Shown piece after piece: positions 11,994 through 15,964 of a stretch of 64,000 nt of DNA. Under the pieces are notes generated by a model. It had not been told where the DNA came from, did no database searches, and was given only the letters and a program-made list of their open reading frames with translations. Position 1 is the stretch's first letter. Every line of letters starts with the position of its first letter. The stretch lies in assembly GCF_013167455.1 (NCBI RefSeq), contig NZ_CP038328.1, one strand, 5' to 3'. The DNA is from Escherichia coli O157:H7 (GTDB taxonomy: Bacteria > Pseudomonadota > Gammaproteobacteria > Enterobacterales > Enterobacteriaceae). A program made the position numbers and the translations under genes.

Positions 11994-12549
11994 GACAGTC
12001 TTAGTCTTTAAGTTGAGAAGGATGGGAGAAACTTGCTTTCTGGGCGCACTGCCGGAAAGCGAATCCGGTATTACGAAAGTGGTGGTGCCTCGCTCTAAGG
12101 ATAGGTGACATCGAAAAAGCGTGCAGAGGAATGTGTGCTTGTGTCTCAGCCCAACGTGAGTGCCTGTTTTTGAGTCGTTGAGTTCTACAGTCCAAAGTGC
12201 TGAAACCATTCAAGAGTCAATTGGCGCGCATTATACGCTGAAATTAATCCAAAAGGAAAACAAAAACAGCGTTTCAAAAAATATACAACTTGTTAGACAA
12301 TAAATTGTTATCAAAGATTTAACGTTCCAGGGAAAAGGTTACGCAAAAACTTCGCTGTTTGCGCAACGTCTGGTGCCGGGGTTGTCACTGTGAAGATAAG
12401 TGAAAGTTCATCCGGTGTATAAATACATCATCGCTCAATTGCTACAGTTAAAATAATTTATCGCGTTATTTGTCTGATTTTGTTTGATTTTTGTTTAATT
12501 GGTTAGATTGATATATGCTGATAGTTGGCATGATAAATAGGTATAAAGA

Positions 12550-12759
12550 ATGGGAAATCGGACAAAAGAGGATGAACTGTACCGAGAAATGTGCAGAGTT
12601 GTCGGTAAAGTTGTGCTGGAAATGCGCGATCTGGGGCAGGAACCAAAGCATATTGTTATCGCAGGCGTATTACGTACAGCATTAGCCAATAAACGCATTC
12701 AGCGCAGTGAGCTGGAAAAGCAGGCGATGGAAACCGTCATTAACGCACTGGTAAAATGA
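12550..12759 (+). CDS. fumD: Fumarase D (YdhZ), 69 aa
   Basis: 69-aa ORF; position between pykF and ydhY matches K-12. Confidence 0.7.
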   Translation: MGNRTKEDELYREMCRVVGKVVLEMRDLGQEPKHIVIAGVLRTALANKRIQRSELEKQAMETVINALVK

Positions 12760-12999
12760 CCATTCAGGATGAGGCGATAAGCTTCATCCTGATATTCTTG
12801 CTTCAGTTGCGGTCCAGTTAATCATTCTAAATAACAACTGCTGAAATTATACGAATTTCGATATGTGTTTTAATTTGTAACGATAATATTATTTTTATTT
12901 TCTGCAATGACCGTCACAAATAATTGTCGCTTAAGTTAAATTCATTTCAAATGATAATAAATATCAGTTCACTTATAATTTCTTGCTTTGTAATTTTAA

Positions 13000-13013
13000 T
13001 TGATAATGATCAA
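13000..13013. promoter_or_regulatory. FNR-box (TTGAT-N4-ATCAA) upstream of ydhY
   Basis: ttgataatgatcaa, a perfect match to the FNR/CRP-family half-sites with FNR spacing, in the AT-rich region before ydhY. Confidence 0.5.
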
Positions 13014-13214
13014 TGTTAAGAGCCCAGAATAACCACATTATTTTTTCTCCTAACCATAAAGGATTGGTTTATCGGCGTTAAATATTTTCTCATACACTAT
13101 CGGGTTAGGGAAAATATCTGGTGTTGGGGACAGAGTCAGCAGCGTATTAGCTGAATGCTTAATATCAGGCTGCTGAATTGTCAGCACTGTGTTTGCGAAG
13201 AGGATGCGAAATAA

Positions 13215-15964
<2,750 letters not shown>

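Follow-up and report, generated by a model that had tools for sequence, protein, structure and literature searches.

The palindrome TTGAT-N4-ATCAA found upstream of ydhY, at positions 13000-13013 of the 64 kb stretch of Escherichia coli O157:H7 DNA analysed here (hereafter, the window), is almost certainly the FNR site of PydhY, the class II promoter from which the oxidoreductase operon ydhYVWXUT is activated anaerobically by the oxygen sensor FNR. Such doubt as is left about this reading arises because the transcription start, the binding of FNR and the regulation are transferred from strain K-12, the start site by way of a secondary citation. The FNR site of ydhY, its position and the regulator itself have been known since 2008 and were confirmed genome-wide in 2013. 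The initial annotation of the window, made from the sequence alone, was right both in identifying a functional operator and in expecting a long leader. The value added by the present analysis is small and lies in a cross-genus footprint of the whole control region (Fur box, FNR box, -10 hexamer and NarL/NarP-like element), in which the spacing between the FNR box and the -10 hexamer is fixed and the length of the leader varies freely.

Genomic context of ydhY

Positions 12400-13900 of the window are 100% identical to the chromosome of E. coli O157:H7 over fumD-ydhY-ydhV, where the annotated genes are fumD (formerly ydhZ), ydhY and ydhV, and the gene order pykF/ynhH/fumD/ydhY/ydhV is the same as in K-12. 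The product of ydhY (13215-13841, plus strand), the first gene of ydhYVWXUT, is a ferredoxin-like protein encoded by an ORF of 208 amino acids. The upstream gene fumD occupies 12550-12759 and is followed by a terminator-like hairpin on the plus strand (12764-12792), consisting of a 12-bp stem and a T-rich tail, which forms the left boundary of the ydhY control region.

The segment 12400-13900 has matches in 5,425 of the 5,426 complete E. coli genomes. About 32 of these 5,425 genomes match less than 80% of the segment, strain N25, for example, aligning at the fumD end only, which suggests that the ydhY promoter or gene has been disrupted or rearranged in a small minority of E. coli strains.

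The FNR box and its chance expectation

The letters read directly from the window at 13000-13013 are ttgataatgatcaa, which confirms the exact match to TTGAT-N4-ATCAA claimed in the initial annotation: TTGATAATGATCAA agrees with the pattern at 10 of the 10 specified positions, is centred at 13006.5 and is the sole exact match when both strands of the 64 kb window are searched. The distance to the ydhY start, previously given as about 200 nt, was likewise correct, the box beginning 215 nt and having its centre 208.5 nt upstream of the ATG at 13215.

In the whole 64 kb, 0.14 exact matches are expected and at least one was present in 13 of 100 shuffles; an exact match somewhere in a sequence of this size is only mildly unlikely by chance, and the bare pattern is not striking. 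Matches with one mismatch are at chance level (3 observed, 2.67 expected). For the 455 nt of the fumD-ydhY intergenic region the expectation falls to about 0.002 exact matches, with one found in 366 of 200,000 shuffles. What matters about the palindrome is its location ahead of ydhY, not the bare pattern match.

FNR sites (TTGAT) and CRP sites (GTGA) are told apart by a T or a G at one position. The palindrome was also considered as a CRP site (TGTGA-N6-TCACA) and rejected as such, since each half of aTTGAT...ATCAAt carries a T where a CRP site would have G.

Identity with the published FNR site of K-12

For K-12, the study of Myers et al. (2013, PLoS Genet 9:e1003565, Table 1; PMC3688515) places ydhYVWXUT among the Category 1 operons, those directly activated by FNR. 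The table gives 1,752,688 as the centre of the ChIP-seq peak and -42.5 as the position of the one FNR site, and records that the absence of oxygen raises both the occupancy by sigma-70 and the expression of the operon. The supplementary tables of the same study mark the operon as 'Activated' (Table S8), report an FNR ChIP-chip/ChIP-seq peak at 1752706 (Table S5), and give a predicted FNR site, TTGATCGTTATCAA, at 1752702 with a PWM score of 14.78 (Table S6). Earlier evidence of FNR binding at ydhY is credited by these authors to Partridge et al. 2008 (Microbiology 154:608), a characterisation of the promoter whose title names the regulation of the ydhY operon by NarL and NarP.

The sequence TTGATCGTTATCAA is the reverse complement of the sole such box upstream of ydhY in MG1655. 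A search of the MG1655 region gave a single occurrence, at 1754678-1754691 of NC_000913.3; the shift of exactly 1976 bp relative to the older coordinate is taken to be the offset expected between the two MG1655 sequence versions at the position of ydhY. Between the centre of the published ChIP-seq peak and that of the FNR box there is a gap of about 20 bp, which is within the resolution of the method. Taken with the published data, this correspondence indicates that the window palindrome is the O157 orthologue of an FNR site for which occupancy in vivo, expression dependent on FNR and the position within the promoter have all been established. The proposal of the initial annotation that FNR activates the ydhY operon anaerobically is thus supported by the ChIP and expression data for the orthologous K-12 box (PMC3688515). 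Published experiments in K-12 or CFT073 are the source for the -42.5 position, for the binding of FNR and the dependence on it, and for the Fur ChIP peak discussed below; the present analysis contributed the identity of the two sites, the geometry of the promoter and the conservation across genera.

Geometry of PydhY

Placing the centre of the FNR box (13000-13013) at the published -42.5 puts the transcription start, on the plus strand, at 13049, and the canonical -41.5 would put it at 13048; we infer the start at 13048/13049 in the O157 strain by transferring the K-12 distance onto the window. The putative -10 hexamer, CATTAT (13036-13041, plus strand), agrees with TATAAT at 4 of 6 positions and is located 32 bp, centre to centre, from the FNR box, which is the spacing of -41.5/-42.5 class II promoters. 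It forms part of a conserved block, GAATAACCACATTAT (13027-13041, plus strand), and its assignment as the -10 element rests on spacing and conservation. Directly 5' of the FNR box is a T-rich flank, TTTTAA (12994-12999, plus strand), the columns of which are nearly invariant across genera.

A -35 hexamer is absent at PydhY, and a simple sigma-70 consensus scan did not call the promoter for this reason. The lack of a -35 hexamer is normal for class II activator-dependent promoters. The sigma-70 peak that rises anaerobically in K-12, at 1752642 (Myers Table S2, PMC3688515), corresponds to approximately 13073 in the window and thus falls some 140 bp before the ATG and 24 bp or so past the implied start. 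The initial annotation regarded a site lying outside a class I or class II position as incompatible with its proposal; the box occupies the class II position -42.5. In vitro, the ydhY promoter is transcribed better by the sigma-S holoenzyme than by the sigma-70 holoenzyme (PMC3141248), which weighs against a firm assignment of PydhY to sigma-70 in vivo.

Conservation of the control region

One genome per species was searched with YdhY, yielding 30 loci from Escherichia, Citrobacter, Leminorella, Limnobaculum and one Raoultella-labelled metagenome-assembled genome. A perfect TTGAT-N4-ATCAA is present upstream of ydhY in every Escherichia or Citrobacter locus that includes the upstream region, and the three loci of Budviciaceae (Leminorella, Limnobaculum) carry TTGATAACGATCAC, with one change (ATCAC). 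Four conserved blocks can be distinguished in the alignment of the control region, namely the Fur block, the FNR box with its T-rich left flank, GAATAACCACATTAT, and the NarL/NarP-like block.

Conservation was calculated for 27 Escherichia and Citrobacter sequences, the window included, over an aligned region of 214 nt with a median pairwise identity of 72%. All 10 positions of the two half-sites are invariant in this set, the four spacer positions being conserved at 52%, 96%, 89% and 100%, and when a fully invariant 5-4-5 mask was placed along the alignment, the FNR box was the only one of 183 placements to satisfy it. The pattern points to purifying selection acting on the half-sites of the FNR box and not on its spacer. 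No indels occur between the FNR box and the -10 hexamer in any of the 30 sequences, whereas the distance from the box to the ATG varies from 145 to 248 nt between species. Selection thus appears to fix the spacing of box and -10 hexamer and to leave the length of the leader free, which fits a single promoter beside the box.

Citrobacter sp. NCU1 has two ydhY loci, L009 and L025, the latter being more divergent (88% protein identity). Locus L025 also has a perfect FNR box, TTGATAATGATCAA, situated about 205 nt ahead of its ydhY-like gene, together with a Fur-like block and a -10 hexamer, CACTAT, at the same spacing; the control region therefore seems to have been kept in this duplicated or acquired copy.

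NarL/NarP-like element

Around position +10 of the implied transcript, at 13051-13066, there is a pair of inverted heptamers with a 2-bp spacer, TAACCAT-AA-AGGATTG, resembling the 7-2-7 arrangement of NarL/NarP sites. Compared with TACYYMT, the heptamers contain 1 and 2 mismatches in the window and 1 and 1 in K-12. The block CCTAACC(A/C)TAAAGGATT(A/G) (13049-13066) is conserved across Escherichia and Citrobacter. Judging from sequence and position, this putative element is most likely the seat of the published nitrate/nitrite repression, its location near +10 being suited to repression by blocking of the start region.

The last position of the distal heptamer is G in O157 and A in K-12 and most species, which accounts for the extra consensus mismatch. 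Five Citrobacter loci (L012, L013, L018, L019 and L030) have an insertion of about 20 nt in the leader, e.g. TACCCGTGTTTAGGGTATG, just 3' of the NarL/NarP-like element. It contains TTTAGGG, an inverted copy of the adjacent CCCTAAA, with the potential to form a hairpin or a second heptamer pair.

The 5' untranslated leader

The implied transcript would begin with an untranslated leader of about 166 nt (13049-13214, plus strand), the length of which varies between species. The initial annotation had offered a long 5' UTR or a second promoter between the site and the ATG; the former stands, and the latter is not borne out, no conserved -35/-10 pair being present in the leader. The last ~40 nt of the leader (13175-13214), GTTG....CACTG(C/T)GTTTGCGAAGAGGATGCGAAATAAATG, are nearly invariant in Escherichia and Citrobacter, and its middle part is highly variable. 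The Shine-Dalgarno sequence GAAGAGGA lies within this nearly invariant end, the conservation of which seems to exceed what a Shine-Dalgarno sequence alone would require; the end of the leader could be subject to translational control or serve as a target site of an sRNA. A small hairpin at the leader end could present the Shine-Dalgarno sequence in its loop, and its invariance leaves no covariation signal.

A scan of 12300-13400 against Rfam at E ≤ 1 returned no family matches, which sets the long leader apart from the known riboswitch and leader families. The consensus fold of the leader, computed from 26 sequences, is weak (-6 kcal/mol) and has no covarying helix beyond the small invariant Shine-Dalgarno hairpin; with a fold of this energy a structured RNA element is not claimed. 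The 5' end of the transcript, CCTAACC (13049-13055), could pair without a mismatch with the conserved GGTTAGG (13103-13109) about 50 nt downstream. A helix between the two was nevertheless rejected, since the differences between species are non-compensating and the pairing is used neither in the minimum-energy fold of the window sequence nor in the consensus fold; GGTTAGG could instead be a further protein-binding element. The leader also contains a 19-codon ORF, MLNIRLLNCQHCVCEEDAK (13155-13214), the TAA of which directly abuts the ATG of ydhY. It is intact in all five Escherichia-type sequences, but many Citrobacter sequences lack the start codon or have a short frame only, and it is probably not a conserved coding element.

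Fur box

A Fur box, TGATAATAAATATCA, is situated at 12952-12966, with its centre at about -90 and 47.5 bp upstream of the centre of the FNR box. As read from the sequence, it has the expected base at 13 of the 14 positions that the 7-1-7 form tGATAATnATTATCa specifies, and its match to the classical 19-mer GATAATGATAATCATTATC is 14 of 19. The conserved block that contains it, AATGATAATAAATATCA (12950-12966), is kept in 30 of 30 sequences from Escherichia, Citrobacter and the Budviciaceae (Leminorella, Limnobaculum).

In E. coli CFT073, the expression of ydhY was reported to fall to 0.07 of the wild-type level in a fur mutant (about 14-fold activation), to be unchanged in a ryhB mutant and to be 0.11 in the double mutant, and Fur is therefore a direct, RyhB-independent positive regulator of ydhY in this strain (PMC7157518). 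Fur ChIP signal is present at the ydhY promoter in both CFT073 and MG1655. The Fur ChIP-seq position for ydhY in CFT073 (1910890) is 18 bp from the centre of the Fur box (1910872) and 65 bp from the FNR box, so that at 12952-12966 a consensus match coincides with Fur occupancy.

AT-rich tract and binding of H-NS

The Fur and FNR boxes are embedded in an AT-rich tract (approximately 12800-13050) with a GC content of 24-27%, and the transcribed leader (13049-13214) has 40-46% GC. The AT-rich leader described in the initial annotation is real as an AT-rich stretch, but one that lies mostly upstream of the promoter and includes it, the leader proper being of the higher GC content. The K-12 counterpart of this tract is a 'promoter island', 1752593_318 (318 bp, ydhY/ydhZ), which is bound by H-NS in all datasets (PMC3661553, Table 1), and in a mutant lacking both hns and stpA the FNR ChIP-chip signal at ydhY is significantly raised, to 1.82 as against 0.29 (Myers Table S7, PMC3688515). 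Sigma-70-like consensus matches are more frequent than expected on the two strands of 12800-13050 (6 observed, 2.4 expected), in keeping with a 'promoter island'. As evidence of additional ydhY promoters these matches were discarded.

It is possible, albeit tentatively and with the balance somewhat against it, that PydhY needs iron as well as anaerobiosis, Fur at the box near -90 lifting the silencing by H-NS/StpA so that FNR can occupy the -42.5 box. Such a mechanism would explain the direct, RyhB-independent activation by Fur, the sixfold rise of FNR occupancy without H-NS/StpA, and the modest ChIP signal in the wild type despite a perfect-consensus FNR box. Its component observations are published; in the literature examined, no description was found of the way in which Fur activates ydhY or of the precise conserved Fur box.

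Alternative interpretations

The distance of 208 nt between box and ATG is long, and the leader contains conserved blocks of unknown role, ATCnGGTTAGGG (13098-13110) and the last 40 nt. Both would be compatible with a second promoter nearer the ATG that mainly drives the operon, the box binding FNR but acting remotely or contributing little. Such an arrangement is highly improbable, since the published -42.5 refers to a known start (PMC3688515), the anaerobic sigma-70 peak is nearer the implied start (24 bp) than the ATG (about 140 bp), the consensus scan detects no sigma-70-like site on the plus strand of 13014-13214, and the leader alignment holds no conserved -35/-10 pair. Moreover, it is the box-to-ATG distance that varies between species (145-248 nt), the distance from the box to the -10 hexamer being constant. 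A further alternative is that the palindrome arose by chance in AT-rich intergenic DNA and has no regulatory role. Although A+T make up 67% of the region and 13 of 100 shuffles of the 64 kb yielded an exact match, the local expectation is only about 0.002, the half-sites do not vary between two genera in which the adjacent bases do, and both ChIP-seq occupancy and FNR-dependent expression have been published (PMC3688515). A chance origin is already refuted by these ChIP and expression data together with the conservation pattern, and virtually no weight can be given to it.

Somewhat less remote, but still improbable, is a second, weak Fur site at and to the right of the FNR box, GATAATGATCAATGTTAAG (13002-13020), where Fur and FNR would compete or cooperate. 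A match to 13 of the 19 bases of the Fur consensus and the Fur ChIP signal at the promoter in CFT073 and MG1655 could be cited in its favour. However, the match is weak and needs the spacer base of O157 (K-12 has GATAACGAT), neither the spacer nor the right flank is conserved, and the Fur ChIP position in CFT073 is 18 bp from the upstream box as against 65 bp from the FNR box. Furthermore, Fur activates ydhY rather than represses it, which argues against the occlusion of FNR. The preferred reading remains that of a class II promoter, PydhY, with the palindrome as its FNR site and a Fur box upstream.

Proposed mode of regulation and comparison with known systems

When oxygen is absent, dimeric [4Fe-4S]-FNR would bind TTGAT-N4-ATCAA about 42 bp upstream of the start, overlapping the place of the missing -35 element, and would bring RNA polymerase to the weak -10 hexamer, CATTAT, and activate it there. 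The mRNA, starting near 13049, would then have a leader of about 166 nt, PydhY presumably being the single promoter of ydhYVWXUT. Nitrate/nitrite repression, as published, most likely operates through the NarL/NarP-type 7-2-7 element that covers the start region. The conserved Fur box at about -90 would receive, as the input for iron, the published direct activation by Fur, and H-NS, bound to the AT-rich upstream DNA, would act as a silencer that limits the occupancy by FNR.

PydhY of the window shares with its K-12 counterpart the locus, half-sites, -10 hexamer, spacing and flanking genes, the whole intergenic region being 98% identical to that of MG1655. The K-12 box, TTGATAACGATCAA, differs by one base in the spacer (AACG, as against AATG in the window), the distal NarL/NarP-like heptamer is AGGATTA in K-12 and AGGATTG in the window, and the two leaders differ by a 1-nt insertion. 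A functional effect of these differences is neither expected nor shown.

The action of Fur at ydhY invites comparison with the ftnA type of activation, in which Fur, reportedly after work by Nandal and co-workers in 2010, antagonises H-NS. In both cases the effect of Fur is positive and RyhB-independent, and the box is located upstream of the core promoter in H-NS-bound AT-rich DNA; the difference is that at ydhY Fur would need to act together with an obligatory class II activator.

With the canonical class II FNR promoters (narG, nirB, dmsA, nrfA, frdA, fnrS), PydhY has in common a TTGAT-N4-ATCAA box about 41.5 bp upstream of the start, the lack of a -35 hexamer and anaerobic induction (PMC3688515). 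Repression by NarL, known for several of them, e.g. dmsA, would be a further likeness. The box of PydhY is, however, at -42.5, a position also found in fnrS (PMC3688515, Table 1), and not at the commonest -41.5, and PydhY is set apart from the canonical promoters by a perfect consensus box, which is uncommon, by its unusually long leader, and by an upstream Fur box with a positive effect.
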